NCBI GenBank assembly: GCA_036172245.1
Contig: JAYWIR010000014.1
Coordinates: forward strand, 3,596,001-3,660,000
Source of the DNA: Raillietiella orientalis
Taxonomy: Eukaryota
DNA: 64,000 nt
Reading direction: 5' to 3'
Made by a program: the position numbers and the translations under genes
The notes under the pieces: model-generated
Database searches by the model: none
Told to the model about the DNA's origin: nothing
Seen by the model: only the letters and a program-made list of their open reading frames with translations
Part shown: positions 1 to 62,791 of the stretch, piece after piece
Layout: the number at the start of each line of letters is the position of its first letter
How positions within the stretch are numbered: the stretch's first letter is position 1

Positions 1-964
1 TTGATGAAAGATTCCTCAGTCTTCAGTTTTTTAAAAAAGTTTCAGATGTTGCTTGTTTTAAATTCAAGGCCCTTACAAGTACACAAATTACTAAGGGAAT
101 GCGTGTTTTATTTTTTATTGAATTAGTAGTCATAAAATCATGGCAAAGAGAAGTAGTGCCTTAATCAAATTACTCCTGTATTTCGGACGATTTTTTAAAA
201 GTAAGCCACATTTTCAAAAGACTTCTGAGCTATTTGTGGTAGATGAATCAGTAGGGTTAAAAATAAAATATTGAAATTTTGATCATGTATTCCTCGTTTG
301 GTGTTTAAAATGAAATTCTTTGTAACAGTTCTTTCTGAAAATACGCCAATCTTTAGATGTTAACTAGCATTTGCAGAGAAACAAGAAGCAGTTATTAATA
401 TGTCTTGTTTATGAAGGACATTTCAGTGTTGGAAATTAAGCAAAGTAATGGGAGTTTTGACTCTTGCTGGTGTCATGCGTTATCATTTATTCTTGGTGTT
501 CCGATCACTTTGATGCAATGACGTCAGATGTTGATTGTTTAAAAAAAGGTATGTGATAGAAGTGGCATTTCTCTTCGATCCAATTAATATGTGGTGTTTG
601 CTATTACCATGGAAGAAGAATACCACTTAAACGTGGAGCAACAAGAAGACGAACCGGTGAAATACTAAGTTCCTTTCATGGATAGATCCATCAGTCGGGG
701 AGAAAGCTTTCTTTACTCGCTGCCTCTGAGACCTAGTACATTGCAAACCCAAAACAGGAAGTGCGTTACACTGCCTAATACCGTTGGTACGGATGGTCAA
801 ATCCTGACGATGTAATAGTGCCCATATCGGAGCTCGGTAGCTCATTAAAATGTAAGGTATTGTAAGTCTGACTGGGAGAGGTTCTATTTCTTCTGTCTTC
901 ATTGTTTTCCTTCCAGCTTTTTTTTTTTTAAGAATTTTCTTTTTTTTGGTTCGCTAAGTACCTC

Positions 965-1654
965 AGAGCCGGTCGCGTGCCTCGCGGAGCACGTGGCTCT
1001 TTTTAAACATTAACAGTTTTGTTTCCACGCCTCTCCGCCCGCGGCAACCCGTAGGGGGGGCGTGTAATTCTTCAGGATAGGGGGCATCCCGGGATGGGGT
1101 TCCCCCTATGAATCCATGAAGGGCTCGGAGTCCGTTCCTCTCACGCTTGGGGAGGGATCGCACCTCCCACCCTCGTTGTCTCCGAAGGGGAACCCTGAAG
1201 GGAATCTCCTTCCTCATTCTCTCCGGAGGGACACCCCCCTAACGGGGGGTGGTCCTCTCCATTTCAACTTCTCCGAAGGGAACCCGGAAAGGATCCGCTC
1301 CTGTTCACTCCTCTGAAGAGAACCCCGAAGGGACGCTTCCGAAACTCAGAAGAGGCGCTGCAGCTTCCCGCAAGGAATCGCTCTCGCTTGGTTCCTTGTG
1401 CACTCTGTGAAGAGGCGATGACTCGGAGGGCCCCCGCAACAGGGGGGGTCCGCTCCTTTGAACAACTGGAGAGGTGCCCGTGAGGTCTCCTGCTCCATCT
1501 TGAAACTGGAGGCGGTCCCCCGGTGACGGGGGTCCTCTCTCCGTTGCACGACCGGAGGGATAACTCCCCACTCCTTTATTCCTGGGAGGACCCGAAGGTC
1601 GAATCCCATTGTTCCGGCCTTCATCAGGAGGCCTCCGGCTTTATCCACCGCCGG
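965..1654 (+). other. Array of ~14-15 tandem stem-loops (putative structured RNA or ssDNA element, non-coding)
   Basis: Consecutive hairpins at ~965-1000, 1026-1064, 1077-1109, 1127-1167, 1184-1212, 1225-1260, 1275-1301, 1315-1340, 1351-1384, 1425-1456, 1468-1496, 1508-1542, 1554-1574, 1584-1607. Most close with GGAG...CTCC (or GAAG...CTTC) and have a CCC-loop-GGG apex; linkers are mostly 9-14 nt. G-T pairs and GCAA/GAAA/GTGA loops favour the + strand. Confidence 0.7.
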
Positions 1655-1734
1655 GGCCACGCCCGAATGTCTCGGCCAACCAGCGCCGTTGCAGGAGAAA
1701 CTCGGAACTCAAACGACGCAGTGGCATCAGTTAT

Positions 1735-1810
1735 CTGCCGAAGTATTCGAACCCGCGACGCATGGTGCCACACGCGGAAGCCTTAACCACAAAGCCTCCG
1801 ACGCGGGCAG
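1735..1810 (-). mobile_element. tRNA-derived SINE-like head (Pol III A and B boxes)
   Basis: Minus strand reads GGAGGCTTTGTGGTTAAGG (A-box-like) ... GGGTTCGAATAC (B-box, plus 1743-1754) with tRNA-like spacing. It does not fold as a complete tRNA cloverleaf. Confidence 0.5.
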
Positions 1811-2519
1811 GGTTCTATTTGGAAGGCTTAGAAAAACGATGTCTAGCCATCCTCCTGGGAAGCTCAGAAATTAAGTTCTGCAATCAGTTTAGACTGCCAA
1901 AGAGAGGGGGGCAGGATTGGAAAGAGCGGGAAAGAATGAGTTGAGAGCATACTTGGGGTGGGATGACTTCGCAAGGTCACAGCAAGTTGAAGTCTTGGAG
2001 AAAAATTGCCGCATGCAAGATGCGTCTCTTGACATCCATATGCTCAATACATATTTTATGGTGAACACGAATCACGATTCTTCCACAGCTATTCCTTACT
2101 TTCTCATTGTAATTTTTGGGATTTTCAGGTAAGATTAATGTTTGGGAATGTAGAAAGATATCTAAGCATGGGCAATACCCTAGTTTCCGATAACACACTC
2201 AAGTCCTTTGTTGAATCAGTTATCCATAATAAGCCAACAAAGCATCAGGTAGTCAGGGGGACGTGTGAGCCGTGAATTTGGGTGCATACGAATGCTCTCG
2301 TGGGAATTATTGGGCCAAAGCTTGCCCTAACTGGGAAATTCCCCCCCCCCCCGGAGGAAAACGAATTTACTTGAACCACATAACTGGAGAGGAAAATTCC
2401 TGACATTCTCCTGACAATTTTATTATACTCTTGCACAAGTATCTTCCTTGCGAAGTATGCTGCCAATCATCATGGTTATCAGGACATATCAGTAAAGCAG
2501 TGCCAAGTCATTTAGCCAC

Positions 2520-5500
2520 TCATAGTTCCAAATGCAGCATTCCTTTCGTGTATTCTTCCTTATCCAAAAACCCGTCATCATTCTTATCAGCTGAATTGAA
2601 AAAATATTCAGCCTTCTTTTCTGGTTCTCCATCTTCAGGATCCTCATCACCGTAGATGAAACTTTCTCGGGGAGACTTGGTCTTTAAGAGACCCCGGATG
2701 GCAAGGTAACGCATCTAGGTAAACAAATGTCTTCTTGATTTGTATAATGAAAAGGTGACTGAATTCTTAGCATGCAAAGATGAAGACGGAAAAGGCACAG
2801 ATCTACTGAAGATTTTTCGAACGAGTAGTCAGATTAGAGCCGAAATTTAGTCCCGAGGAGGTCGTGCGATAAAGTTTGCTTCATCCGGCTTTCGACCCCA
2901 ACTGGAAGGACACGCGGTAGGCTAAGAACACGAAGCAGGTGCTTCGGGAAACACATGCATGCAAAAGTGAGAAACTGCTATTTAAGAAGAAATCTGTGGA
3001 TATGACAGTGATCTTACTTCTTCACGGCTTATCTTGAGATCTTCATTGACGTCAGCATCGCTGAAAGTCTCCCACTCATTGATGGACAGAAGCTCAACAT
3101 CAAATAACACTGTTGTATCTGTATCCATTGCGATGAGGATTGGAATGCTGCTTAAATCATTGAAATTCTGAGACTCACTTGGAGGAATCTTATCTAAGTA
3201 TCCGCTTTCTCCATATGCTTTCTCTGGAGGCAAGGTCAGCCTGCGTACTTCCCCAACACACATCCCCAACAGAGCACTGCTCCATGCAGGAGACTGTTTA
3301 CTATTAAGTTCAAAGCTGTAGGGTTTTCTCTTATCTGTGCTGCAAAAGAGTCCAAAGAAAAAAAGGTATTCGTTAACGACATACGTTGACATTATTCAGC
3401 TTATGTAATACCACGTGTTGCATACGCTGAATAAATACCTGGTCTGAGGTCCTTGACAAATGCAATTTCGTGTTAAGCAACGAAAATATGGATCTGAAAG
3501 TGGTCAGGTAGAAACCTATCCTACTTCCAGATTCAGATCGACAGCATCCTCTACAGAAGCAACACCGACATATACCCCTTCTTCCTCCTCCCCTCCCATT
3601 ATCCTGCTGCTCCACGGCAGTGCCCAAAACAGCCATTCTCTTGAGGTATCCTAGGAAATTTCATTCCAACTGGTGTATGGTTACTTTGCTGTCTCTATGG
3701 CGGGGCAAACGCCGCAGAGGCGAACGGTGCCAGCAGTGTATCCCTATCAACAGAAGGGAATGAAACCGAAAAAGAAAACACATAACCGATCAGTTGTTCT
3801 GCAGCTTTCAAAACGGGATGCGTTCCAGAGGGAAGCTCATCTTAGCTTTTTTTTCAGTACCCTCTTTAAAGGATTGGTTTTGCAGTGCATTTCACGAAAC
3901 TTCTACCTGGATCGGGAAGTGGCAATCATATTCAGGGCGAAAGTTTCTCATTTGCTCCACACCATCTGCGCACCACTATAGTCGTACTGTTTCCATCCTC
4001 TTGAATCTGTAAGAATAGTTGCCGATGCTAGTGCACTGCACTCCTCGGTACTCTTACATCTTCGATTTTATTCTTCGAAACCACACGAAACTTTCGATCT
4101 CTTCAGAATTTCATATCCTGTGTCTCGGTTCCCCCAAAGCTCTATGCATGCCGATGCTCACTCCGATTTTGTCGGGTGATGCAATGTATACTATCCATCT
4201 ATAGTCACTTAGAGTCAGAAGAGATTCGTCTATTCTCTGCTCTGCTTGAAACATCCTTCCCTTTTCAGGAAGATATGGTTCACCCGATCATCGTTTCGAC
4301 CACATCTAGAATGTCCCTATTTATCACAGGACACTCCAATCAGTCACAAGTTAAGCTCAATCATGACTGAATTTTCTGTACTAATGAGACACGCTTTGAG
4401 TTGTTCAAGGGTTGGATCCAAGAGGGTCCACCTCAATGGCAAATCTCCGTAGTGTTGCGTCAATACATTTAAGATTGCTCCCAAATCATCAAAAATTTTT
4501 TGCAACGAAGAGATCAGAACCTATTACGAGTGAATTCCGAGACTGAAGAGCTTCCAGTCATGCTTACATCGCTCTCATGGTTATGAGCGTCCAATGGCTC
4601 AATATATTTTGCTGGTGTGGTGGGAAGCAGGTGGGGATCCTCGGTACTCCACACTTTCGCTCATGCACCGATCTTTCATTTTTCTGGATACCGTTCGAAT
4701 GCCTCTGTTTGAGCAAAGCAGAGAAGGTTTTCTTATCGAAAGGGAAGGGAAAGGGGGTGGGAAAGGGGTGCATGCTGAGGGAGATTGCGAGTCTTAAACT
4801 TGAAAGGTTCATTTGCAGAAGAACAAAGATTTGGTCTGTCCAAGTCAGGCTACTCTCGAACAGGACGTTAGCATTCTCTTGGACAAACACCGGATACTAT
4901 GCGATTCCATTTTGATCTAGATGTACTTGCCGCAGGCATTGTAAGAAATCAGCTTACTTTGAGAGGCACAAGACTGTGCTGAGTATTTCAAAGTCAAAAT
5001 AAGGAAGACAAGAACATGATAAGCGGCACCTTGAAAACAGGAGTTCTCGATCGAGGTCACACGAGTGCACTGGAGAAAAAACGAGTAGATCGGAGCGATC
5101 GGAACGATGGATGGAGCTCAAGAAGGGTTCCTCAGAGAGGAAGTTCCAGTGTTCAGATGCATAACTCGGTCTCTGTCTGACCGTTTGTCACTCACAAAAA
5201 AACTCAAAAGCAACGGATGGTTTTCCTTGCTTCTTATCCTTTGCTGTTATCTATGTTTCTCGAAACAGGAAGCAAGCATGAGCTGACAATATCTTTGTGG
5301 ATCTGACAGCACTCGAAATTCATCACTCATCTCTGACACAGGAAGAGCGGAAGAAGAGAAATAAAGGATGCCAACAGGCAATTCAAAGACTTGCTTTTTG
5401 AGCCGGAATTGATTCCTTAAGGTGCTGAGCTCAGACAAGTTCGAAAAGGTGGGAGATTCGTACCAGAGGACCCTCCCTTGTTGGTTTCCACTGAATTTAT

Positions 5501-18651: not shown

Positions 18652-20673
18652 ATGTTTAGGATTTTAAGAGAGAAAGTGCAAGCTGAAGCAAAAGAAAGGA
18701 GTGAAATCATTAAAACTCAAAAAGGCATTAATAGCCACACGTTGTTAAAAAGTACGCTCCGCCAAAACCGTGTTTATCAGGTAATTTAATTCAGAATTTG
18801 AATTCGTGTGCAACATTAGACAATTATTTTATTAGAAAAACGAAAGTACACCGTCATCTTCTCAAGATGATATTTCCGATTGTGAACAAAAGTGTATTGT
18901 GAGCCCAGGCAGAGGAATAACCGGTAATTAACATTAATTTCGGAAAAAGCAAAAAAATGCTTTCAATTCCAGAGAATCAGAAGCTTGACCGAAATGAATG
19001 TGATGAAGAAAACGGTGCCCCGAAGAATGATTTCCCAGAGGATTTAAATGTAAGGATTCATATAACAGATTTGCACTTAATTCAGAATTTACATTTACAT
19101 GTGATATAATAGATTTATGCAAGCAATTCAGAATTTAAATTTGCATGTAACAATAGATAATTATTTTATTAGAAAAAAGAAAAAACACAGTCATCTTGTT
19201 TTGGTGATTTTTCCAATAGTGAACAAAAGTGTAAAGTGAGTCCAAAAATAGGAATACTTGGTAATCAAAATTAAATTTGAAACCAAAAATTGCTTTTAAT
19301 TCTAGAGAATGAGAAGTTTAACCACAATGAATGTAATGAAGCAAATTGTACTCTGAAGAATGATTTGACACAGAATCCAAATGTAAGGATTGTTACAATA
19401 GATTTACACAAGTAATCTGATTTTAGCAATTTGGGATACTGAGCATTTTCATCACAGGTTTCATGGCAGCCATTTCTTATCATTATGTTTAATTCATGAT
19501 AAGAGATGGTTGCTTGGAGTTTTTGTTTGAGTGTTTGTTTGAGATAATCAATCTTTTCAGGAAGGATTAGATGAGGAACTCACTAATAAAGATGTGGGGT
19601 CTCCTGTAGCAAGTGGCTTTCTTGGCAGGTTTGATGCAATTTTTTTATTTGATTATGCTAAGAATGAAATAGCATAGAAAGTAAAAAGTCTGCAGACATG
19701 TATGATGTGTTCCAGCAGTTGAAAGAGAATCTTGTTCAGAAAGATGAAAAACTTTGTTCTCTTTTGAATGAGGTTTGTAATTAATGGAGATCAATATTAT
19801 GTGGAAAATTAATTACCTATTAGAAAGAAGAATTACTAAAGAAAAAGCAAGAGGTTGAAGAACAGCTAGGAGCCATAAAAAGAAAGTGGCAGAAACAAAT
19901 GATCCATTTAAATGAAGAGATCAAGAATCTGCATAGTGAGATTGCTCAGAAGCAACAACAGATTGTGTCTCTGAAGAATAGTGTGCATAAAGATGCATGT
20001 GATGTAGGAATCCAAGTGAGTGCAAGATTTTATTACCTTTATCTGTGCAGGTAACTCAAATTCTCTATTAAAGAATATTGTGTAATAGGTCTCTGGGGAG
20101 CAACCAATAACTCAAAAAAATCAGGAAGTCTCTTGTGATCTAATTAACAACACACCTATGGAAAATTATGTGACTTCAGAAGAAGTGCTTTCTCTGCAAT
20201 TACAGCTTAAAGAGTTGGAAGAGCAGTTACAGGAAAAAGACAAAGTAAATTGGTTTCTTCAGTAAACTTTATAGTTGTTTTAGTACCTTAGGATACAGCA
20301 GCAGCGGCTTTCTGATTTAAAGAAAATTATGCAGCGAGAACTAAGGCTTAAAGAGAGCTATTCTCCTGCTGGTGGTGCTTGCAGTGATTCTGAGTGCTCC
20401 CAGCGCCTGGTTCCAGCACCTTCTCTGTCTGCTTCCACTCCAGCTCTTCACCACAGCCAGGATCCTGTTGACATAAACACTCAATATTTAAAGCACGTTG
20501 TTTTCAAGTTTCTCACAGCCAAGGAGAGTGAAGTGAGTGGATATCAATATTTTGCCCCTTACTTCCTATAGGCACCACATCTTGTGCGAGCCATAGTCAC
20601 ATTGTTGCACTTGACTCCAGAAGAAGAATCACAACTCAGGGAGTTTCTCAAATGGAGGACATCTTGGTTTTAA
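18652..20673 (+). CDS. GOLGA1: Golgin-97-like coiled-coil GRIP-domain protein, ~441 aa
   Basis: Exons 18652-18780, 18836-18923, 18973-19049, 19173-19260, 19306-19382, 19561-19628, 19673-19772, 19824-20015, 20089-20244, 20284-20532, 20572-20673 form one open frame. N-terminus MFRILREKVQAE (cf. MFAKLKKKIAEE); coiled coils; GRIP domain DINTQYLKHVVFKFLTAKESEAPHLVRAIVTLLHLTPEEESQLREFLKWRTSWF. Confidence 0.88.
18789..19420 (+). repeat. Tandem duplication (~335-nt period) of a two-exon cassette within the golgin gene
   Basis: 18789-~19085 aligns with ~19126-19420 (e.g. ATTATTTTATTAGAAAAA, GTGAACAAAAGTGTA, GAAGAATGATTT, AAATGTAAGGATT in both copies). Exon sizes are 88+77 nt in both. Confidence 0.85.
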
Positions 20674-27357: not shown

Positions 27358-28887
27358 ATGGGTGAAAATACTGATGATCACAAAACACTGCAATGTTTGA
27401 AAATTGCAGTTGTAGGTTGTGCACATGGGGAGCTTGAAAAAATATATGGCACTTTGCAAATTCTTGAAAAGCATTATAATTTCCACACAGATCTCTTATT
27501 GTGTTGTGGTGACTTTCAAGCTACAAGAAATTTGGATGATCTCCATTCAATGGCTGTGCCACCAAAGTACAGAAGAATGTGCTCGTTCCATAAGTATATC
27601 TAAATTGCTTCCAGCAGTATTAATGCATCTACTAGAAGTTCTTGCTGTTTAATCAGGCAATAAATTTGTTTTCTTAGGTATTACTCAGGAGAAAAAGAAG
27701 CACCTGTGCTCACAGTTTTTATAGGAGGAAACCATGAAGCATCTAATTATCTTCAGGAATTACCCTATGGAGGTTGGGTAGCACCAAAAATATATTACAT
27801 GGGATATGCAGGTAATAATTTAGTCCAACAGGGAAGGAAAAAAAGCACTTTTAGGAGTTGTGAAATTTGGCAATATTCGCATTGCTGGGTTGTCAGGGAT
27901 TTACAAAAGTCATGATTATACCAGGGGGCACTATGAGGTGCCTCCTTATAACAGATCTAGTATCAGGTCCGTGTATCACATACGGCAACTTGAGATGCAG
28001 CGTCTTTTGCAGCTGAAACAACCTATAGACATATTTCTTAGTCATGATTGGCCAAAGGAAGTGACACAGTTTGGCAACACTGATGATCTTATATCAAAGA
28101 AACCATATTTCAGGTGTGCAATACATATTCATATTGAATTTAACATATGTACAGAAAGGAGGTAGCATGCTGTGAATTGGGTAATCCAGTGACAGGCCAG
28201 CTGTTATTCCAGTTAAAACCTACTTACTGGTTTGCAGCACATCTTCATGTGAAGTTTGCAGCCCTTGTGCCACATACAAATGTAAGTAATCAGTACAATA
28301 AAGGAAACAAGCCGTCTCCTAGAGCAATCAGTACACACGTTTTTTGGCCCTAGATAAGTGTTTGCCACACAGAAATTTCCTTCAGGTGAGCAGTTTTGAC
28401 ATTTGGATAACTGTTGCATGCATAAGCATAGATCTTAGATATTCCTTGCAAAGGTTCAGCACCTTTAAAACTCCAATATGACCATGAGTGGTTGCACATC
28501 CTCCAAGCAACAGATCATTGGCTAAGCACTTCATGTGTTTCATGTGACATCCCAACCAGCATGTTCCCACCCACACTTAAGCAGCTTGCAGCAGTTTCCA
28601 CTAGACAAGAAATACCCTGCAATTTTAAACCTAACTGTTCACTATATAAGAAATGTGACAGGACTTCAAATGCAGAGCTAGAGACATTATTGGAAAATCC
28701 ACAGACAGTAGAACTTTGTTCTTGGTTAGCAATAAGACATCCTTTGAAAGAGGCTTGTCATGGAGTTTGCCAATCTGTATCTGTATCTGAATGTAGTTTT
28801 GTGAGTGAACAGTCCACCTGTTATTCTATGTCTTCAGAGAAAAGCACAATTAATCCCAATGAAATTTCTCTCAGTGATGATGAATAA
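27358..28887 (+). CDS. DBR1: Lariat debranching enzyme (metallophosphoesterase), 424 aa
   Basis: Exons 27358-27593, 27678-27811, 27855-28113, 28155-28281, 28323-28385, 28432-28887. Intact motifs [69 protein letters not shown]. Confidence 0.96.
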
Positions 28888-28892
28888 ATTTG

Positions 28893-30465
28893 TTATAATA
28901 AAACAATGGTTCGCTGCTGTCCTACTAAGCAGCGCTCCTGCAGAATTTGTTCCTTCTTGAAGGCTAATTTGTTTTGTTTCTTTTCTTGGCATCTCTCCTG
29001 AAATACCACAGTGAACCTCCCACCAAAAAACAAATGAACTGACCCTGCGCAATTGATGGATAGCCTTTTTGCGTACACGTCTCTCCTCAGGAGACTCATC
29101 AGATGGGCGAATGGATAGCTGTGAAAGACAACTCAAGAGATCAGAAGTAGGGTGTTTGCTGGAACTGGAACTCCTTGTGCTCTTTTCAAGCCATTTCACA
29201 TTTTGATGTGTTAACTTGCTGTCATCTGAAGCAATACCCTGTCTGTTCACGCGAATAAGACGAGGAGGCATTATAAGTTCAGGCAAATTGAAAGTTTTAG
29301 TGCCAGTGCTACAAATGGATTCACAATCCAGCTGGATACATTGCTGCTGTGGATCCCAAGCATCATCTGAATCTTGATTTTCTTCTGCATTTTCCTCTAA
29401 TGTAAACAACTTTCTCTCTGAGTTATCTGTGTCCTTTTCGTAACGACTACATGGTTTATCCACGAATTTCATAAGCTGTTCTGGAAGGGGAGCAATATAA
29501 CCCTCAATGTTTTCTCCATCCAAGGATCCAATTGCATCGTCTCTGTATTCTGCAAAGAACTACGTTTCACATTGTGGAAATACTGTACATTTTGTAATAC
29601 TTTTTCAAATTGTTCATCCAATGTCAGCAAGAGCTCTGATCGGGGCAAGATGGAACTGCTCAAGGAATAGTTAGTGAAGTGACTCTTGCTATCTTCAAAA
29701 CCACTGTTTTTATCTGATGAAAAGCTTGAAGTTTCATCATCTTTGGCAACTATGTATAGATGATCAACATCCTGACTTAATATGGTGGAAAGAAAAAAGT
29801 TGCTTGAGATGCTCAGTTCCAATACCAAAAAACTGGTTCACATGCTTCTTCTTCATTTGCTAATTGAATAAAGTTATCTTCGAGTTCGTTTTCTGGATCA
29901 CTATAATCGAAATCATCATCTAAAGCAGCAACTACATCTGGGTCCCAATCTGGTCTGGGTCCTTGAATGCTAAAGTAACTTTTGGCCAAAATATAATTAC
30001 AAACCTTTGTTCAAATAAGTAGAATCACGTTCCTTTATTGAACCAGGGAGAACTTTGGTTGGAAAATGCAATGAAACCTACATACCACGCAAACTGATGG
30101 ACTGAATTCCTTAAATCAGGTTCTGCAACCCCCACCCCCCGAAAAAAAAAAAAAAACTACCTAAGAATCCTTCCTACCTTTTTAGCAGTTTTATTCCTTT
30201 TTTTGCTTTCAACTGGTACTAGAACGAATTGTGGAGCATCGTCGTCATCTGCTAATTCATCCCTCAAGCTCCGGTGTACTACATCGAACGTTGCTTTATT
30301 TTTTCCAATGAACTTCTTTTTTTTTGTCTGGAACACGATTCGTCGTAATTAAAATGTATAGATTCCATATTTATAATGAACCAAAAAGTTATTGTGCGCA
30401 TCATTTTCTTCCATTACAAAGATATTAAAAAGCCTAAATCAAATCAATTAAAAGAAGCATACCAT
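28893..30465 (-). CDS. LTV1: LTV1 40S ribosome biogenesis factor, ~385 aa
   Basis: Exons 30465-30463 (ATG only), 30327-30178, 30077-30005, 29961-29826, 29775-29601, 29559-29044, 28997-28893. Motifs KKKKFIGKNKATFDVVHRSLRD, GPRPDWDPDVVAALDDDFD, SKSHFTNYSLSSS, LTLDEQFEK, DCESICST, ESPEERRVRKKAI, EKKQNKLAFKKE. Confidence 0.92.
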
Positions 30466-32458
30466 ATCCAAACTGCACTTTGGGAATCACAGTGTACTTG
30501 GTGAAACTACATACAGAAGTACCAGCTGGTTTATGTATTATTTGCAATTTTTATATAACGCAGCATCTGATGATAAAAATAGTTAGAAATGAGGAATTTA
30601 TGAATCAGAAAACCTTTTATGAATGTATGATTTTATAGTAACCCTAAAAATGATGCACATAACGGAATTTTATCTTTTCAGAGATTTTATTTAATCAGCA
30701 AAGTTTTGTTGAAGTTAGATTTGGAAATTATTGATGCAATTTGTTTTCTAATAAATTAATTTTTATATCTTCGTCCATGAAACAGTTTTGTGAATTGAAA
30801 ATGTGTCTTTAATTCACGTATATATGAGAACTACCCGAACCAATTTCTAATCATGTCAAATCCTAGGTTCATTGTCACATGTGAATGTTTAGAGCATGCT
30901 TTTTTCTTGTTGTTTAGCTGATATTTTTTAGCCTATGGTAGTTTCTACTCTCAAACTTGACTTATCTTTCAGCAATGAAACAATTTGTCAATATCGAAAG
31001 ATGAATTTCTGACTCTCCTCCATAATCTTCAATACTTATTCCAAAATTTCTGGTGTTATCTCAGTGCTTCATTTTTATTGATTTCTGAATTATTGAAATT
31101 AACAGTACCTATAATGTTTCCTTTTTAAACGATAACTCAAAACATTATAAAGGAGTGCAGTTAAAGTAAGCACATGCAATCATGCAATTAGCACAATTTA
31201 TACGTTTAGTTACTCGAAATGCTTTTACTTTTACTAGAATTTTGCTATCACTCCAACTTTCTTTTTTTACTCTCACATTTTTCAGAAGTTTCAAAGAAAT
31301 CATTGCAGTTAAGGCATTAGAAGGTGTGCTAGGAAATTAAGGAACAAGCTTCGTTTACTATTTTTCGTAAGCAATAACAACAGTACTTTTTTTGAAGCAT
31401 TGTTTGATAAGGTGTAGTTACAGTTGGAATTTTATATTTCAGCTTGTATATGTTAATTTATCATCACTTGGATCTTCTTATTTGAGATCTTATATGATGG
31501 ATTTTTTTCTACTTTTCATTTCATGATGTATTTTGTTTGATTTTATTTAGTAAAGTAGCGGTATAATGCAGAAACTAAATAAAAATTCAAAATTCGTTTA
31601 GAATGACTAAATTAGAAATCGATTCATGGGTTTATTAACGAATTAATTGAGATGTACAAGGTGTGTGTTCTATTACATAGAGCACAGCAATTTTTATGGC
31701 ACGAATTTCTACAGATTCCAAAGATGATCGATCTTATAAATATATAGATAAGAGATTATTTCAGGATGTAAAATGAAATCACAAGTAAAATTCCAGAGGT
31801 ATGAGGTAGAAGGCAGGAGGAAAGGGTACCCGTGGAAAACTCTCGGAAGCATAGATCGTTTGAGTTTGGGATTAGTGTGACATCCTCTCGCAGGGACTTA
31901 CAGCTTCAAGATTTTTCATCACTTGTCTAGAAGCAGCTGCTGTAATTACAGTTTCCTCTAGACCGATTCAAGGTGAGAGGTAGCAGATGGAGAGAAGTGA
32001 AACAAGAGGAGCCTGTCGATCTTTGGGGACAAGAAGATGTTCGAGCCATCTCATCCAAAAGCCTCTTCGGAGGTAAAAAAACAAAGTGAAGTATAATCGG
32101 ACTGTGTCCGTGGGTAACCAGATCTTTCCGATTTCCAGACAAATCTTCCGAAGCTCAATTGAGGCTCATCCCATAATTCCGTAAATTGTTTTTTTATTTC
32201 TGAGAATTGCTTTAGTATAACACTAATTAGTTGAAAATTATTTAATGCAACCTTCATGAGAAAAATGCTTAATAATGGACCTTTTTCTCAGCAAAATCTT
32301 ACCATTCAGCGAGATTAATACGAACTTCTAAGAGATCTTCAGGAGGCTGTCAAGCGACTCGAAGGCTCTCACCGGTCGGATGATACATTGCGGACTCGGA
32401 TGCTGCTCGCGAAGCTGCCACCCCAGGAAGAAAGCTGGACTTTCTCGAGTTCTCAGGC

Positions 32459-33418
32459 AGGCGACCCGTTGGACTTCCGACCCCGGGAGGCCCTACGAAG
32501 CCGATATCTGCAAGGAGACCCCTCCTGGTCTCCCTACTCTCTGTCCTCGGGATAACTCTTCCCCGAGTCCGAACTTCCCGGAGGTTCTTTTTCCGAGCGC
32601 CCTGTCGAACGGGCCGCTGCCCGAGCGGGGCGAGAAGGGGTGCGATGCGGCGCGAGCTGCCGGCACGGGAAACGCGATCCCGGCGATGCCGGGAAGCAGC
32701 GCGCCAACCCGTCTCAAGCCGGGTCCTCGGGACTGCCCGTGCTGTCCTCGAAGCTCGAGCATCGGCTGCCGCCACCCTGCTGTGGAGCACGCAGGGGCAA
32801 CCTCCCCCCTCCCCCTCCACGCGTTTGCACTCCCGTTCTCCGGGTGTCAATCCACTTTTCCTTCTGGCTCCGGGTGTCTGCCTGCGCCCCACGAACTCGA
32901 GGTCATATCCTGCGCGAGCTCGCTGCTCCGGGAGAGGCAGATCGACCGACCGGCGGGAGGCCTCGAAGTCTGGTGTCTTTGTGGGAACCTCTCTGGTGAC
33001 CCGAAATCCACGTGAGTCTTTTGCGGGAGAGTTCTGGACCCCCCACTGTCCGAGGCGTGCCCCGTGGGGGAGGATTGGGGATTCCTTCCTTCTTCCCTCG
33101 GCACGTCTTCCCGGTGGGAGGAGGAAGAGTGAATGAAGGGGGTGGGGTTTGGGGGGAGGACCAGTGGCTGGTTTCTGGATGCAGGTTTCAGGAGCGCGGC
33201 GAGAATGAGGGATGACATCATCTCACTTGCGGAAGCATAAGGATTGTCGGACCGACCACTCTTCTGGGATGGGAAGAACTCGGTGGTGCAACACTCTGTG
33301 GAAATGAACGGGGGATGCACCCGTGTCTGTATCGATCCGGGATACCGCAATCGACGGATGACCCGGGGCTGAATTTTCTCAGAGGTGTTACTGAATCCGA
33401 GCTGGGACCCCTTTCGAC
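32459..33418. repeat. 960-bp dispersed direct repeat, copy 1
   Basis: Identical to 54789-55748 (constant offset 22330) apart from 8 substitutions counted by eye; no indels. Confidence 0.95.
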
Positions 33419-34115
33419 CCGCATCCCTCCAGCCAATCAAGTTTCCTCGCGCTACCGCCGGAGCGATCTGCGGCGGTGCTGGGAGAGTCTTTCGGGAAGC
33501 TGGTAGCCACGCGAGTTTTCCCTGGAAGCTGAAGGGGCGAGCTGCACCCTAGGGAAGAAATTTAGGCGTTCCCCTCCCTCTCTTCCCCCTCCGCTGCCGC
33601 CATCACTGGCTGCGGGATCGGCACGCTCAATTCTCGTGCCTCGGGGTGATCTTGTGGGGGGTCTTCCCTTTCGCGGCACCTGCTGAGCGTCCTCAGACCG
33701 ACGGCTGCTTTCCTGCAGACAAGTCGGCTGCTCATTTCGGGACGGCCGATGTTGATACCCGCCGCCTCGTCCGCAGAGACTTGGGGACAGTCCGCGCAGT
33801 TTCTTCGTGCGGTCCACCCGGCGCTACTCCTCCTTCGGCAACCTCCCCGCTGGTCCGCCCCGATTCCAGAACCCTCCATCCCGTGCGCGCGCTTCGTCGT
33901 CCCGCCTCCTAAAGCTCCGAAAGGGGGAGTCGCCGGTCGGGTCGTTTGTCGTTTCCTCGGGCATTCGTCCAGAGGTCCTGAGCGTCCTCCTCCACCTCTG
34001 CGGGGAGAACCCGCGGATCCACCCACGTTCCTTCCCGCTGCTGCTCTCCCTTCACGAGCCATCCCGGAGCCGGCGGACGCTCCATCGCGATCGCCGGTCC
34101 TCGGCTCGCGCGAAG

Positions 34116-52700: not shown

Positions 52701-55700
52701 ACTTTCGCTCCCTCCAGATCCTGGCCACACGTAGTCCGGTGACACGTGGGTCTGTTCCGTGACAGCCGCGTGGACGGATGCCCTTGAAGGCCCCCGTGGG
52801 TTCAGGAACACGTCGTGCCTCTGCTCGTCATCCCATGGCAGCAAAAGCGCTCTCGACCCAGTCCCGTGCGCGCATCGACGAGGCGCTCTGCAGCCCGGTC
52901 CCTGGGAGCGACACGATCGGTACGGACGTGGTCCCCGAGAGTGAGACGGTCAGCAAAAGCCAGTACTCACGCGGGAAGGATGAAAGCATCATGGGCGGAC
53001 GAGGCAAAGGCGCCAAGGGCCTCGGGAAAGGAGGCGCCAAACGCCACCGCAAGGTGCCGCGCGACAACATCCAGGCATCACGAAGCCCGCCGTTCGCTGC
53101 CTGGCCAGGAGAAGGAGGCGTCAAAAGCATCTTTGGGCTCATCCACGAGGAGACGCGCGGCGTGCTGGAGGTGTTCCTGAAGAACGCGATCTGCGACTCC
53201 GTCACGTACGCGGAGCACGCCAAGCGGAATACGGTGCTCGATCTCGCCGTTGTGCCCGTTCGGGGCACGAAAGCGTTCGCGCTTGCGAACACTTCCGTGC
53301 AAGGGGACAAGAGCACATGTGTTCGAGCACATTTCGTGCTTGCACGGGCTTTCGCGCAACAGCGCAGGTCGCGTTCTGGATGTCCTGTGCGCACCGCGTG
53401 ATGCTCCCGTTCCACGCGAGCGCGCGAGCCGCCGAACGCTCGTGCATTTTTTGTACACGGTGGGAAGGAGCGCCAAGAGCGCGGAACGCCATCGAGAGAG
53501 GAACGAGAAATCCTCGTGTCTCCCGGATTCCTTTTCTTCCTCCTTGCTGTCAAAAATAGACCCGAGTCGGGAGGAAACGCCGCAGACTCGAGGGGGACGA
53601 AGAGGCAGACGGGCAAAGTGGTCTGCGCTCTCTAGCAGCCCGCCTTCCGCCTCCTCACAGCCCAGATCGAGAAGGGGAAGACTTGAGCAGAGAAGGCTGC
53701 ACTGCAGCTCGGCGGCACAGTATACCTGCCACGTGTGCAGTACGGAGGAAACAGCTCAAGCAACCAAAGAGAGTTCCGGTTGCAGGAAGTAGAGAGGGAA
53801 GGGAGTACTCACGATGCCCATCAGGAAGTCGCACCTGCGAAAGGGAGGAGAGGAATTCGGCCTCCTCCCGGGAGGGCAGAACGCATGGGAACATCCTCTC
53901 CCCTCTTCTTCGCTGATCGCGGGAGGAAATCTTGAGCTCGCCCTTTTCTTGGAGACTCCATGCCCTCGAGCTCGTTCCGAAAACTCCCCGGAAATGTCGC
54001 CTCGTCTTCCTTACTCCGCCAGCCTCTTGCCGATTGGGAGTCGCTGCCGCTCCCGGAAGGATTTCTTTCTTGTTGGCTCCCAGGAGCAGGTCAGCTGCTG
54101 GAGAAAGGTCACACGTCCCGCTTTCCCAGGGCGGCATCTTCTCCGACGGGGCAGGCGACCTCGAATGAGCTGGTCGAGATGAGCACCTCCTCCTTTGGTT
54201 GGCCGCAAGGAACGAGGCTTGGAGTGGCCAGATGCGCAGCCGGCGTCTCTCTCGTGGGGACTGGGGGTTGCCCACTAGCACACTAGCATCGGTCCTTCCA
54301 GGAAGGAACGCTCGCGATGGTGGACAAGACGACCGGGGAAGTCGCCGCTCGGAGACACGACCTTCATCACGATCCCGAGCAGTGGCACCAGCAGGACTGG
54401 GAGCAACTCCTGGAAGCCGTCGTGGACATAAGCAACAGCCGCGGGTGGAAGAGTGAAGACTGGGTGGGGCAGATTCTTCCGAGAGAGGCCGAAGCAGCTC
54501 TGAAGGTGGCAAAGGGCGACATCTGGAAGGCGGCATCCCTGTGCCTGGAAGACAGGCGGCGCAAGGTGAGCCCTCTTCGACATCTGTTCGTACTTTGCTT
54601 CAGGGTCTCGCGAAAACCCGTATCAGGGTGCGTCGCCCTCTCCGGGAAGCCGGTAGGTGTCGTGGAACTCGAGCTGTCAGCCCAGGTCACGTCCGGGCTC
54701 CTCAGAAATCCTTCCTTCTTCTCCCTCCTGGGGGGAGTTCGCTGCGGAGCTCACGACGCGGGAGACCACCTTCCTCACGCACGCGGGTAGGCGACCCGCT
54801 GGACTTCCGACCCCGGGAGGCCCTACGAAGCCGATATCTGCAAGGAGACCCCTCCTGGTCTCCCTACTCTCTGTCCTCGGGATAACTCTTCCCCGAGTCC
54901 GAACTTCCCGGAGGTTCTTTTTCCGAGCGCCCTGTCGAACGGGCCGCTGCCCGAGCGGGGCGAGAAGGAGTGCGATGCGGCACGAGCTGCCGGCACGGGA
55001 AACGCGATCCCGGCGATGCCGGGAAGCAGCGCGCCAACCCGTCTCAAGCCGGGTCCTCGGGACTGCCCGTGCTGTCCTCGAAGCTCGAGCATCGGCTGCC
55101 GCCACCCTGCTGTGGAGCACGCAGGGGCAACCTCCCCCCTCCCCCTCCACGCGTTTGCACTCCCGTTCTCCGGGTGTCAATCCACTTTTCCTTCTGGCTC
55201 CGGGTGTCTGCCTGCGCCCCACGAACTCGAGGTCATATCCTGCGCGAGCTCGCTGCTCCGGGAGAGGCAGATCGACCGACCGGCGGGAGGCCTCGAAGTC
55301 TGGTGTCTTTGTGGGAACCTCTCTGGCGACCCGAAATCCACGTGCGTCTTTTGCGGGAGAGTTCTGGACCCCCCACTGTCCGAGGCGTGCCCCGTGGGGG
55401 AGGATTGGGGATTCCTTCCTTCTTCCCTCGGCACGTCTTCCCGGTGGGAGGAGGAAGAGTGAATGAAGGGGGTGGGGTTTGGGGGGAGGACCAGTGGCTG
55501 GTTTCTGGATGCAGGTTTCAGGAGCGCGGCGAGAATGAGGGATGACATCATCTCACTTGCGGAAGCATAAGGATTGTCGGACTGACCACTCTTCTGGGAC
55601 GGGAAGAACTCGGTGGTGCAACACTCTGTGGAAATGAACGGGGGATGCACCCGTGTCTGTATCGATCCGGGATACCGCAATCGACGGATGACCCGGGGCT

Positions 55701-58700
55701 GAATTTTCTCAGAGGTGTTACTGAATCCGAGTTGGGACCCCTTTCGACTCACCTCCCTCCCCTTCCTGGAGGGAGGCGGGAGAGAGGACCTTCTAAAGAG
55801 TAGAAGCAGCTGCCGTAAAACATGATTTCATTGTGCAGACGGGGGAGCTATCGTTTTCTGATTGGACCATCTCCAGGGCTTCTAACTGAACGGGTCATCC
55901 GTCGACTGGCGCGCAAGCATTTTCCCACTCTGGAAGGAAGAGAGGGATGACTCTTGCTTCTGCAAGAGTCATCCCTTCCTTCTGAAAGTTTGTACCGGAG
56001 GTTCTTCGAGCCATTCAAGAGGAGGTCACCTTTGCTCTTCTCTCGTTGTTTGGCTGGACAGGAAGGCTCTTGAAGCTTTATCTCTGGAAGCATGGCCAGG
56101 CTCTGGTGCTGCTTGCACCGCCGCTCGTGGCATTCGTGGGAAACACTTTGCCTAGGTCTTTGCATGAAAGACAAACCTCATAAAAGCTCTCGGGCATGAC
56201 CTTGCTCGTGCTGCTGCTTTTGTGGTTTCAGTCCCTCATGCTCCGTGTAGGACGGACTCTGCGAGGACGCAGTGGCGCTGTTCCCTCTTGCCGCTCCTTC
56301 CTCACCTCCAGGACGAGGGAAAGTCAGTATTTTCTCAACCTGTCCCCTTCTCGGTTCCATAGAGTTACTCGTTGAGAGGAAATGATAAGAGCCAGGGTCT
56401 CTTCAACACAATCATTAAATTATTTACTGTGCAGTGACAGATGAGGAGAGAGAGACGGGAAGAATTGTGGAGCGTTCTTTGAAGTGAAGATTCACGAGAT
56501 GAGCACCTATGAGTGCCATCAGCTGGCTTATTGGTTGCCTAGAAACACTTGTATCCGGATGCTGTTCGTGCTGCCCGTGCAATCTCCCATAACTGTCGAA
56601 AAGGTTCAAGTTCTTGGGACTCCAGGTAGGGCTGCATCATGCAGATTGAGGCAGTGCATGACCTCGTGAGCAATCCAGCCTCGGGTCGTGAGAGGATACT
56701 CGCGCGAGTGATCCGAAAGGCGGTCATTGTTAGAATTAAAAAACCGTCCTCAGAGGATTTTCGAGAGCACTATTACTCGCATCTCCTAGTGAGAAAAAGG
56801 ATATACAAAGATTACCAAATGCTCAAAGATGTGAAAACAAACATCAAGGACATGAGCGCATGATGCTTGACATGCTCCTCTAGCAAGTCCGGAGTTTCCT
56901 AACCATGAGGCAACTGAGGAATACACCTGTGCTTGAGTGCACAAGGCGAATCACCGATCTCAGAGTCAAAGGAAGATGAGGACCTCAGTACACAATTGGA
57001 ATTAGTCCACTTTGGATGCAGCATCCAGGGTGCTTTTAAGCATTGCAGTGCTGCAGTCGAATCTGGACGGTCAGGAGCAAAATGACCCACGGAGAAAAAA
57101 AGAACCACCCCCCAACGTCATCAATTATTCCCTAACCTGATCAAGATTGGTCAGCCGGAATCATTTGCAGCCTCTTAATTCTGCATGCGAGTTGCATCAT
57201 GTGGGGATCTTCATGGAGCGGACCTCACCGAATAGTGCCAACTCCAGAGAGAATCTGAGTGAGATATCCGGAACACTCCTGCTAGGATCTTGAGGCGATA
57301 AGGTGGGACATGCCTCAAACTCATTTGTTTGAGAGACGTCTGACAACACACTCGAACGAAGAAATAACCGGACTACAAGGAAGAGCAGGCTCAAGAATAC
57401 GAGGAGGATCTTTCCAAGTCGTCGAGAAGCATCAATGATTTCATTGGGTTGGACAAATCTTTTGCAAGCGGAAAAGAAACGAATAATTCAGAATCTCGAA
57501 AGCAGCAACAGATTTCTAGTTCCTGTCTAGAGAAAATCAGATTTCGAGATGCTCTGGAAAGCAACGCGACTAGCTATCAACGGTTTCTTTGAGGACACCC
57601 TTATACTCTACCTGCATTGGACCATGGAAGTCTTCTGAGTTGATAAGGAGCTCAGATTTTTTTAAGGATTAGTGGAAGGCTATTTACGATTCCAAGCTTT
57701 TAATCTACTCTGCAAGGAAAGAATAAGAATCATAAGAGGAGAGAAGGAGCTAATGGAGTTCACGAAAACACTTGGCAGGTTTCAAAGAACTCAAATCAAA
57801 AGACCACCTGGATTCCATACACGTCTGCTGAGTCGCGAGGCCAACTAATCACTCTGCTGGAGACCCGGTAACGCAGTTCTTAAGTTCTCAATATGGAAGA
57901 GGTCAAATTGATTGTGGAGGTCGAGAATCAATCACTGGCTAACCTTTGGCCTACCATTCTTGTTTCCATAGTGTGCGAAGTAGTTGTTCCTCTCCTTCTC
58001 TTCATGAGCTGTGTGAAGTGGCAGCAGAAGTTCCCTGATTCTCTCTATAGAGTATCAGTGAAGTCGGATGGCTGGAACAAGCCTAAACACTCCGACTTGC
58101 ACATCCTCGCCCCAATCTGCCCGATTTCAGGTTGTTTGATCCGTTGCTCTTCCGATACCACGTCCAGGCGCCTTCCCTATCCGACCTTTGCTGCTTGAAC
58201 GAGAAACCCACCTCCGGTTTTTTTTCCCACGCTGTTTCCACAAGAACGGACTTTTCCAAATCCTTGATTCGGCCCACCAGTGGAGCCGCGACTTCCGCCT
58301 GTTGCTCAATGCCCTCATAGACTATGGAGGGTTTGCGGCGCTTGGCAGGTGGAAGGAACGAGCCCTGAAATCGTTAGGAGGGGAACGAAAGTTTAGCTCG
58401 AGAGTACACACGCAAGGCAATGATTTCGAGTTCCAGGGTTTGTCCTACTTTTCCCGCTGCCGACTCCAGAGGCTTTCTCTAAGACAAGAATCGACGTTGA
58501 CGTGTTACCGTGTTCCCGCTCACCGAACGCATTCTTGGAAACTAAAAGTCATTCTATCTCACAAACTTTCTTACATTCTATAATTAATTCTTTTCTTGGA
58601 GTCCAAACTTTTTCATTGGTACATGCTTATTCTTTCTTTCTACTTCCATTGTGCTCCATACAGAAAGTTGGTTTCCACTTGAATGGGCCAACCAGTTGAC

Positions 58701-61700: not shown

Positions 61701-62791
61701 ATCAGCGAATCCATTTCCAGGAGAACTTCCTGTTTTATGAATCAAGAGGGAGAAAGTCGAGGTAGGCAACAATCACATTAATAGTAACAACAATAAAAAG
61801 AACAATGGGAACAAATGGGAACATCAGAAGCAGAATACCAAGAGCAGTACCTATAAGCAAAAAGAATAACAGTAACAATGATAATAAGGCGAAGAATAAG
61901 AGTGAACATAATAAAAACAACAGCGATAATAATAATACAGTTGTAACGACAATATTAATCACAACAATTACAAAAACAATCATAACACTAGCCATGACCA
62001 CAATAAGGACGAAGATAACAATAGCAAGAGGAAGAAGTAACGGTGGCGAGACTGTGCTGCTGACAGCCAATTTGTGTTGTTCCTCTTTCGCTTGTTCTTC
62101 CGGCGCTTCCCTCACATCCCAGTACCCCGGTCCCCATTTCGAGTTCTCAGACACAGTAACCGCTAGCTCGTTACCGAAACCGCGGTACCAACGTCATCGT
62201 GCTTCGCCACCCCAGCAGGAATGGCTTCCCCGGAGTCGCTCCTCTTTGTCCACTCCCCGTTTTCCACCTTGTTGTGGACTGCTTGAGAATGCATATCTAT
62301 TCTCCCTCGGAGCCACGTCATTTCTTCTTCTGGAGATCGTCTGGTGCCGTGGATTTGAGCAGCGTCCTTTCTCTTCCTCTACCTTTCGCATCCTTGCCGG
62401 GCGCATGGTGGTCACGCTACCAGGTCGAGCGCCGCCAGAGATGAACCACCCTCTCTCCATCGCGCGGTCGCCGCTTCTCACCTTGTCCATTGTTTGAACC
62501 ATTCATCTCTCGAACCTGTCTTTTTTTCCCGTTCCAGGAGGACCACATTCCGTTAGCTCACCCCTTGGCACTGGGCTGCGTGCGAGCAGCCTGCAAGAGA
62601 CCGGGGAGGAGGAGGAGGAGAATGAAGAGGAGGAGGAGGACGACGACGAGGAGGAGAATGAAGAGGAGGATGACGACGAGGAGGAGGAAGAAGAAGGAGA
62701 GGAAGAGGAGGAGGAAGTAGAGGAAGAAGAGGAGGAAGAGAAAGAGGAAGCACAGGAAGAGGAGTTTCAAAAAGAAAGGGATGAGGATCAG
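37564..62791 (+). CDS. RNF31: HOIP/LUBEL-like linear ubiquitin E3 ligase, 5' portion (continues past the window; first exon uncertain)
   Basis: Phase-consistent exons: 37564-37715 (B-box), 45845-46051 (KPPLPPK...[11 protein letters not shown]), 49471-49664 ([11 protein letters not shown]), 49751-49862, 50037-50201, 50331-51165 (NZF), 51496-51692, [possible unresolved exon(s) ~53.6-54.1 kb], 54302-54565 and 61596-61761 (UBA region), 62538-62791 (poly-Glu). Domain order and motifs match arthropod LUBEL from memory; RBR not in the window. Confidence 0.8.
39150..39760 (-). mobile_element. Decayed LINE reverse transcriptase remnant in a HOIP-like intron
   Basis: Colinear minus-strand echoes [42 protein letters not shown] of the LINE RT motifs W..A.IV...KG / RPISLL / QFGFRP / LW..L..FG / GV.QG..LS. 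Confidence 0.45.
43000..44000 (+). mobile_element. Decayed LINE reverse transcriptase remnant
   Basis: Colinear echoes [11 protein letters not shown] (~43095), QGFVS (~43666), RDDL (~43836, YADD-like position), [14 protein letters not shown] (~43954, FKYLG...D..L-like). Confidence 0.4.
50331..51165 (+). CDS. RNF31: HOIP/LUBEL-like gene: exon with RanBP2/NZF-type zinc finger
   Basis: TTTTCAG acceptor, strong C/G third-position codon bias, [21 protein letters not shown] at ~50874-50936. Confidence 0.85.
52991..53236 (+). pseudogene. H4: Histone H4 pseudogene (3'-truncated, two compensating frameshifts) in a HOIP-like intron
   Basis: [28 protein letters not shown], 1-nt deletion (~53075), shifted-frame [12 protein letters not shown], 1-nt insertion (~53113), [41 protein letters not shown]. 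The C-terminal [21 protein letters not shown] is absent. Confidence 0.92.
54302..54565 (+). CDS. RNF31: HOIP/LUBEL-like gene: UBA-region exon
   Basis: CTTCCAG acceptor and GTGAGC donor; [20 protein letters not shown]...[34 protein letters not shown] resembles the HOIP UBA tandem and continues in frame at 61596 ([25 protein letters not shown]). Confidence 0.8.
54789..55748. repeat. 960-bp dispersed direct repeat, copy 2 (intronic)
   Basis: Near-identical (8 substitutions) to 32459-33418. Confidence 0.95.
61778..62040. repeat. Degenerate (AAY)n trinucleotide low-complexity tract, intronic
   Basis: Run of AAT/AAC/AAG-like triplets directly after the 61596-61761 exon. It explains the Asn/Thr-rich and hydrophobic ORFs reported here. 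Confidence 0.8.
62538..62791 (+). CDS. RNF31: HOIP/LUBEL-like gene: acidic poly-Glu/Asp exon
   Basis: TTCCAG acceptor whose phase 1 matches the 61761 donor; GAG/GAA/GAC run encoding [30 protein letters not shown]...; GTGAGT donor. Confidence 0.75.

Follow-up and report, generated by a model that had tools for sequence, protein, structure and literature searches.

Locus layout and element boundaries

The window analysed here, by which we mean the whole stretch of 64 kb, is low-gene-density eukaryotic DNA composed of AT-rich stretches and GC-rich islands. One of these islands, at 950-1810, reaches 58% GC (bin 1001-2000) versus 37% in the preceding bin. An FKBP gene on the minus strand is marked by an FKBP_C exon at 3395-2985 (E = 3.9e-14) and by a last exon that encodes an EF-hand, ends in ...HLEL, and closes with a stop codon at 2522-2520. 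A homologue search with the FKBP exon was negative at E values up to 1e-10. The original prediction had singled out positions 965-1654 as an array of stem-loops and had read it as a structured RNA. We found that the hairpin array (~1065-1620) is the inner part of a larger unit of 921 nt, which occupies 890-1810 when the minus strand is read and upstream of which the FKBP gene ends at a distance of 710 nt, in the same orientation. The stretch 965-1654 corresponds to the repeat body (1065-1620) of this unit plus the hairpins of its 3' region. The features of the unit and its borders are as follows.

880..889, no strand: candidate target-site duplication, left copy (GGTTCTATTT); the same 10-mer stands at 1811-1820
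890..949, minus strand: A-rich 3' tail, made up of A8, GAAAATTCTT, A12, and then 28 purine-rich nt
950..1064, minus strand: 3' region, in which long GC hairpins at 965-1000 and 1026-1064 flank an AT-rich stretch
1065..1620, minus strand: degenerate tandem array of ~12-13 hairpin-plus-spacer units of 29-47 nt each
1621..1731, minus strand: non-repetitive stretch of ~110 nt between the head and the array, with small hairpins at 1616-1633 and 1635-1654
1732..1810, minus strand: 5' end, weakly tRNA-like, with box-A-like and box-B-like motifs
1811..1820, no strand: candidate target-site duplication, right copy (GGTTCTATTT)

On the minus strand, the element starts with GCCCGCG at 1810-1808, and the island ends in ACC-A8-GAAAATTCTT-A12 (949-918), followed by the 28 purine-rich bases; the A12 and A8 runs appear on the plus strand as T12 at 918-929 and T8 at 940-947. 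The stem-loops of the 3' region comprise 12-15 bp on either strand, with dG values of -15.8 to -22.7 kcal/mol. The left copy of the candidate target-site duplication sits 28 nt past the A12/T12 run, and a shared 10-mer or longer arose in 27 of 2,000 shuffles of the flank zones 821-960 and 1781-1900, which puts the chance of such a match at ~1.4%. The hallmarks of a non-LTR retroposon, namely an A-rich 3' tail and a target-site duplication, are present here, the duplication as a candidate only. Terminal inverted repeats, by which a DNA transposon or MITE would be recognized, are absent from 860-1860, where the only two inverted pairs are both single internal hairpins. The A-rich tail and the tRNA-like end suggest that the minus strand is the sense strand of the element.

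No reverse transcriptase or transposase was hit among 250 translated pieces of the window (249 open reading frames of at least 90 amino acids plus one exon piece), so the element is non-autonomous and has no partner nearby. The comparison with Rfam that the original prediction had put forward did not connect the stretch with any family, as there were no matches at gathering scores across the whole window. The best sub-threshold hit, to the serC leader, scored 19.3 bits versus a gathering score of 35 (E = 0.22); this hit and those to the lincRNA-p21 region, CC2171, TLS-PK3, and RNase P were far below gathering scores and were set aside as chance. A viroid-like, ribozyme, or circular replicon was rejected on account of the lack of a ribozyme hit and the existence of A-tailed linear copies.

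Folding of the array and symmetry between strands

Local folds were computed as minimum free energy (MFE) structures restricted to pairs at most 50 nt apart, with 100 dinucleotide shuffles per strand as controls. The plus strand of 965-1654 folds into 21 stem-loops with 204 bp, 11 of the stem-loops having at least 9 bp, and the minus strand folds into 20 stem-loops with 214 bp. The energy of the plus strand is -278.5 kcal/mol versus a shuffle mean of -228.0 (SD, 10.5; z = -4.8) and that of the minus strand is -275.2 kcal/mol versus -224.0 (SD, 12.2; z = -4.2); none of the 100 shuffles matched the observed value on either strand. The global folds were concordant (z = -4.27 and -2.16, with 20 shuffles each). 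The stretch is indeed packed with short stem-loops, as first described, and the proposed folding of both strands against dinucleotide shuffles places it beyond the controls on plus and minus alike. In the longer interval 940-1810, folding is slightly more stable on minus (-342.5 kcal/mol) than on plus (-326.5 kcal/mol).

Many of the sequence details in the original prediction are present at the locus. The GGAG closers start at 1127, 1225, 1425, 1468, 1508, and 1554; the variant closers GAAG/CTTC, AGAG/CTCT, and ATAG/CTAT exist; and the 11-nt linkers are found as TTTGAACAACT (1457-1467) and the ATCTTGAACT-type ATCTTGAAACT (1497-1507). The features that had been taken to mark the plus strand as a selected RNA did not hold up. 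G-T pairs had been said to work on the plus strand alone, and we counted G-U pairs at 12 of 204 on plus versus 13 of 214 on minus in 965-1654. GNRA caps had been taken as a further sign of selection on a single-stranded structure; of the 21 loops predicted on plus, just three are GNRA, all of them GTGA, and the minus strand has special loops of its own in GAGA, in GCGA, and in UUCG, which caps two unit hairpins. With 2-3 special tetraloops per strand, and with the CTTCGG motif occurring five times on the minus strand, neither strand stands out from the other in folding, G-U content, or special tetraloops. It is because of this symmetry that the arguments for a selected plus-strand RNA fail. 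What stands of the structured-RNA reading is that the hairpins are real and that their complementary arms are specific to each unit.

Repeat units of the array

The array is a decayed tandem repeat with a hairpin-plus-spacer unit of ~40 nt. We cut units from the minus strand at successive GGAG starts, which gave 14 units of 29-47 nt, and aligned them with MAFFT. Their consensus is nGGAGCGGnnCCCCnnCnGGGTnCCCCTCnG followed by a variable spacer of ~10 nt, with a mean column identity of 31%. The design that recurs is a bulged GC hairpin (GGAG-N-GG-A-Cn, loop, Gn-N-CC-N-CTCC) and then the ~10-nt spacer. Six short direct-repeat families (D1 to D6) lie within the array. TRF at its lowest score threshold found no tandem repeat in 965-1654; autocorrelation has a peak at 40-41 nt, with z values of 3.2 for 965-1654, 3.8 for 1170-1620, and 3.3 for 1120-1350. 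The attributes of a tandem repeat, which are head-to-tail units, a consensus, and a period, are thus present in weak form, and the regular spacing that had been claimed for the stem-loops survives only loosely, as a weak period of 40-41 nt among units that range from 29 to 47 nt in length and that TRF does not call.

A covariance model was built from the three best units and run unfiltered over the whole 64-kb window with E values up to 10. It gave 33 hits, 14 of them in the 690-nt stretch. Five units that were not used for training scored 10-15 bits on the minus strand, which does not exceed the 18.6 bits of the top unrelated hit, located in GC-rich DNA at another place in the window. The units of the array are related and heavily diverged.

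Other copies and variable unit number

Contigs from two coded public runs (X1 and X2) match the locus at a likeness of at least 80%. These were the two runs listed for the locus, with a word share of 0.05 each and no RNA run among them. In X1, 116 contigs fall on 862-1833 with likeness of 80-99%, distributed as 1 contig at 99% or above, 13 at 95-99%, 50 at 90-95%, and 52 below 90%. Up to eight different X1 contigs lie over one position, a figure that is contig depth and not copy number, and half of the matched contig material continues into unlike sequence. In X2, a contig of 955 nt matches 940-1793 along its whole length. The ends of the element recur as well. One X1 contig (record 7; 222 nt) ceases to match at 1808 and has 50 letters of its own beyond that point, so this boundary is common to another copy. 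The tail is reached by X2 record 9 (917-947), X2 record 10 (from 940), and X1 record 1 (from 936). Between the ends, X2 record 10 extends over both the 3' region at 950-1064 and the stretch 1621-1731; X1 record 1 also covers the former, and X1 records 7 and 8 the latter.

The copies differ in the length of the array. Relative to this locus, X2 carries an additional 49 letters at 1299/1304 and, after 1149, a hairpin-like insertion of 21 nt, and X1 contigs skip 57, 76, 90, 126, or 150 nt of the locus. Tail, body, and head travel together and so form a single dispersed repeat in which the number of units varies, and the locus is almost certainly a member of a dispersed repeat family. The original prediction had counted a match to the interior of a known, untranscribed transposable element among the findings that would refute it, and as regards the interior position this is essentially what we see: the array lies inside a dispersed repeat, though one without a name.

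There is no second copy within the 64-kb window. A 22-mer search of a genome contig collection gave no matches, and neither did a search of a viral contig collection. Two metagenome loci (L001 and L002) that were found with a 20-mer from the head were rejected as copies, as they have only a word of 20-21 nt in common with the element and a GC content of 69-72%, which we attribute to chance. The flanks at 700-861 and 1834-2300 are without contig cover in X1 or X2, and we draw no conclusion from this.

Interpretation as a probable SINE-like retroposon

The hairpin array is an odd-looking member of an ordinary class of sequences and not a new RNA machine. We consider it likely that the element is an A-tailed retroposon that reads on the minus strand. 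On balance, we favor the fuller interpretation that 890-1810 is an inactive copy of a family of non-coding, SINE-like retroposons of ~0.9 kb in the same minus-strand reading. The following course of events would account for the observations. Slippage or unequal exchange would have multiplied a palindromic unit in a master element. A LINE reverse transcriptase, priming on the A-rich tail, may then have copied the entire RNA into other places in the genome. The copy at this locus, 710 nt downstream of the FKBP stop codon, would do nothing in particular, and its hairpins would be inherited from the master sequence rather than maintained here. The term replicon-like RNA, which was among the original suggestions, is loosely right in that the stretch belongs to an apparent retroposon, which would copy itself via RNA.

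The result is of use mainly for annotation, as what looked like a striking structured RNA array turns out to be mobile-element body. We advise that hairpin islands of this kind in the genome be treated as a single repeat family and masked before structured RNAs are searched for.

Pairing within units and selection on the fold

The same retroposon could instead owe its hairpin array to selection, the array being the working part of its RNA. It might then be a multivalent platform for the proteins of the partner LINE, or a fold that stabilizes an unusually long transcript, and compensatory changes in the master genes would preserve it, with dead copies such as this one merely inheriting the result. 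We regard this alternative as unlikely, and the evidence that bears on it comes from the pairing of the arms. MAFFT alignments of the units are not structure-consistent, and we therefore used arm-swap tests and the covariance model, both of which lean towards pairing. Among 16 hairpins, the duplex of a unit's own arms averages -13.4 kcal/mol on the minus strand versus -7.7 with other arms, and -14.3 versus -7.8 on the plus strand; none of 5,000 permutations reached these values on either strand, with the qualification that the arms were taken from each unit's own fold and that matched C-run and G-run lengths make up a large share of the own-arm advantage. For eight homologous units, the corresponding energies are -14.65 versus -11.88 on minus and -14.92 versus -11.38 on plus, reached by fractions of 0.00027 and 0.0012, respectively, of 40,320 permutations. 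In the model-fitted alignment, which leans to pairing in that it was fitted to structure and enters each hairpin twice, once per strand, 92.2% of cells pair versus 82.1% in shuffles and 58-78% with slid partners, both sides have changed in 23 cells versus 5.1 in shuffles, and 9 of the 11 pairs show two-sided change.

These figures are what a selected array would lead one to expect, and so are the varying closers (GGAG/CTCC, GAAG/CTTC, AGAG/CTCT, and ATAG/CTAT), the single G-U intermediate among them (GGAG/CTTC at 1301-1275, which pairs on the minus strand), and the five CTTCGG motifs. However, every measure is symmetric between the strands, as is expected of DNA palindromes, and the pairing figures are biased by fold-defined arms, by a structure-fitted alignment, and by the matching of run lengths. 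RNAalifold, given a structure-free MAFFT alignment of 10 units, predicted no pairs. The GAAG/CTTC closer is common to two similar units, H and K, and may represent a single event.

Comparison between copies also speaks against selection of the fold. For this test, we used 40 listed substitutions among 134 differing places, all of them letters of the X2 contig (45 other letters in all). Among these 40, 22 fall at positions that are paired on the plus strand (55%, versus 59.5% of positions that are paired); 14 of these disrupt the pairing, and in no case has the partner changed as well, in a test that is biased towards breaks because the structure was derived from this copy. With the minus-strand structure, 17 of the 40 are at paired positions and 12 of them are breaking. 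No compensated change was found among the 40 listed substitutions between this copy and the X2 contig, and these letters give no indication that the fold has been under selection after the copies separated.

Pairing has been kept while the units diverged, in a way that does not tell RNA from DNA palindromes. This leaves room for selection on the master RNA, and we think it improbable that the hairpins were selected there. The most specific form of the idea is a long retroposon of the pol III type in which ~12 bulged GC hairpins are a selected module that recruits LINE proteins or shields the transcript and is kept by compensation in the master genes; this seems to us decidedly unlikely. Were it correct, here would be a SINE body with a defined structural function rather than junk of unknown origin, and if selection does keep the pairing in master genes, the family would be well suited to studying the role of a SINE body.

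The tRNA-like head and the pol III question

To return to the SINE-like interpretation, the question for its 5' end is whether the head could derive from a tRNA. On the minus strand, a box-A-like motif, AGGCTTTGTGG, is found at 1797-1787 and a box-B-like motif, GGTTCGAATAC, at 1753-1743. They lie 44 nt apart within the first 70 nt of the sense strand, with two mismatches in the former and one in the latter relative to the box A and box B consensus sequences. Matches of this kind occur no more often in the window than expected by chance (12 versus 15.1 expected, and 188 versus 235). ARAGORN called no tRNA at default settings; at a threshold of 80%, it reported a tRNA-Leu(aag)-like 81-mer at 1812-1732, together with two calls on the opposite strand. 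The Rfam models for tRNA, 5S, and 7SL gave no hit at E values up to 10, the tRNA model having been run on 111 nt. A T4 run is absent from the minus strand over 861 nt, a weak result since 763 of 2,000 shuffles likewise had none. A tRNA or pol III origin of the element is a possibility that falls a little short of probable.

An A-tailed retroposed element need not have such an origin. A non-autonomous LINE derivative or a 3' LINE fragment, transcribed by pol II, would fit this description, and so would a composite like SVA; we consider this explanation unlikely too. In its favor are the silence of ARAGORN at default thresholds, the chance frequency of the box motifs, and a length above that of all 175 SINEBase families. 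But the ARAGORN call at the 80% threshold falls exactly on the 5' boundary that X1 record 7 has in common with this copy (1808), the two box-like motifs stand 44 nt apart at the very start of the strand that the tail defines as sense, and the element holds no coding remnant.

Alternatives without retroposition

A palindromic minisatellite that arose locally, or a DNA transposon of the MITE or Helitron-like kind, would explain strand-symmetric palindromes and a variable number of units, both of which are typical of repeat dynamics at the DNA level. Such explanations are very unlikely here, given that array, head region, and tail are found together in other copies (as in the X2 contig that spans 940-1793), that terminal inverted repeats are missing, and that the A-rich tail is at one end only. 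A host gene for a structured non-coding RNA, or an ssDNA recognition array, residing at this locus (a protein sponge or a small-RNA precursor array) would fit the folding well beyond shuffles and the unit-specific complementary arms, but is extremely improbable for a stretch that belongs to a multi-copy element with ends of its own, has no Rfam match at gathering scores and no strand preference, differs between copies by uncompensated substitutions, and is unstable in unit number.

Comparison with known elements

The SVA elements of hominids are non-autonomous, A-tailed composite retroposons with a GC-rich VNTR middle, whose units are tens of bases long and vary in number. SVA is not tRNA-headed, is probably transcribed by pol II, and is ~2 kb long. 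Its likeness to the element described here lies in the A tail and in a GC-rich tandem middle of variable unit number; no sequence relation between the two is known.

The closer comparison is with SINEs. As defined by SINEBase (Vassetzky and Kramerov 2013, PMC3531059), a SINE is an interspersed repeat of less than 1 kb that has at least 100 copies and, across 60 nt or more, at least 60% identity to tRNA, 5S, or 7SL RNA. The paper cautions that A and B boxes count as an indication only. Being 921 nt long and represented in X1 and X2 contigs, the element is a short (<1 kb), interspersed, non-tandem repeat. It resembles tRNA-derived SINEs, with their head, body, and tail, in being a non-coding interspersed repeat of less than 1 kb. 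Its 5' end carries motifs like those of box A and box B and folds weakly like a tRNA, the origin of its body is obscure, its A-rich tail is of variable simple sequence, and a candidate target-site duplication is present. Unlike in tRNA-derived SINEs, the likeness to tRNA cannot be demonstrated with ARAGORN at default or with the Rfam model.

The element also differs in size, at ~860 nt without the tail, from the 175 families of SINEBase, which span 75-662 nt (PMC3531059). In the partial full-text literature at our disposal, which included PMC11481361, we found no described SINE with a body of ~40-nt hairpin units. The family is mildly unusual in being longer than any of the 175 SINEBase families (2012) and in having a body of hairpin units. 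A precedent for a tandem-repeat body is CHRS, described in the SINEBase paper as a "quasi-oligomer" SINE in which a degenerate motif of ~20 nt is repeated more than 10 times (PMC3531059). On this description, the CHRS motif of ~20 nt contrasts with a unit of ~40 nt in the present element, which is itself a bulged GC hairpin plus spacer.

Array of the probable retroposon and the nearby FKBP gene

The copy of the SINE-like retroposon that comes from another organism, recovered in the coded public sequencing run X2, carries a 21-nt insertion after window position 1149. The insertion is a GC palindrome in its own right, which suggests that new hairpin halves arise inside the retroposon's array of decayed hairpin-plus-spacer units. 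Next to the retroposon lies a minus-strand gene for an FKBP-type peptidyl-prolyl isomerase, and a C12 homopolymer run occupies positions 2341-2352, between the stop codon of this gene and the retroposon.

2520-3395, minus: FKBP-type peptidyl-prolyl isomerase gene
2985-3395, minus: FKBP_C exon of this gene
2523-2705, minus: its last exon, encoding an EF-hand and a C-terminal HLEL

We take this EF-hand and HLEL end to resemble those of ER-resident FKBPs. A protein search with the window's FKBP exon at E values up to 1e-10 returned no homologues.

Other ORFs and repeats in the window

Pfam matches marked four further exon-sized ORFs, and the window also holds a long direct repeat.

20284-20568, plus: GRIP domain ORF
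28432-28884, plus: DBR1 C-terminal domain ORF
29472-29837, minus: LTV1 ORF
54287-54787, plus: HOIP UBA pair ORF
32456-33430 and 54786-55760: 975-bp direct repeat, two copies, 98.8% identity

The DBR1 and LTV1 ORFs are arranged tail to tail. The repeat copies are spaced 22.3 kb apart in DNA of 55-65% GC, whose ORFs gave no matches in a Pfam search, and the copy at 54786-55760 begins at the end of the HOIP UBA ORF. The two copies could be the LTRs that bound one very large element, or they could stem from a segmental duplication that took place recently.

Two neighbouring copies of a repeat of ~290 bp (18788-19076 and 19125-19409) share 77.5% identity, and TRF reported two copies of a 46-nt repeat at 19060-19148. 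A GGA/GAG-rich triplet repeat of ~160 nt (62605-62764) lies within a plus-strand open frame (62498-63244) and encodes an acidic low-complexity stretch that has only weak Pfam matches.
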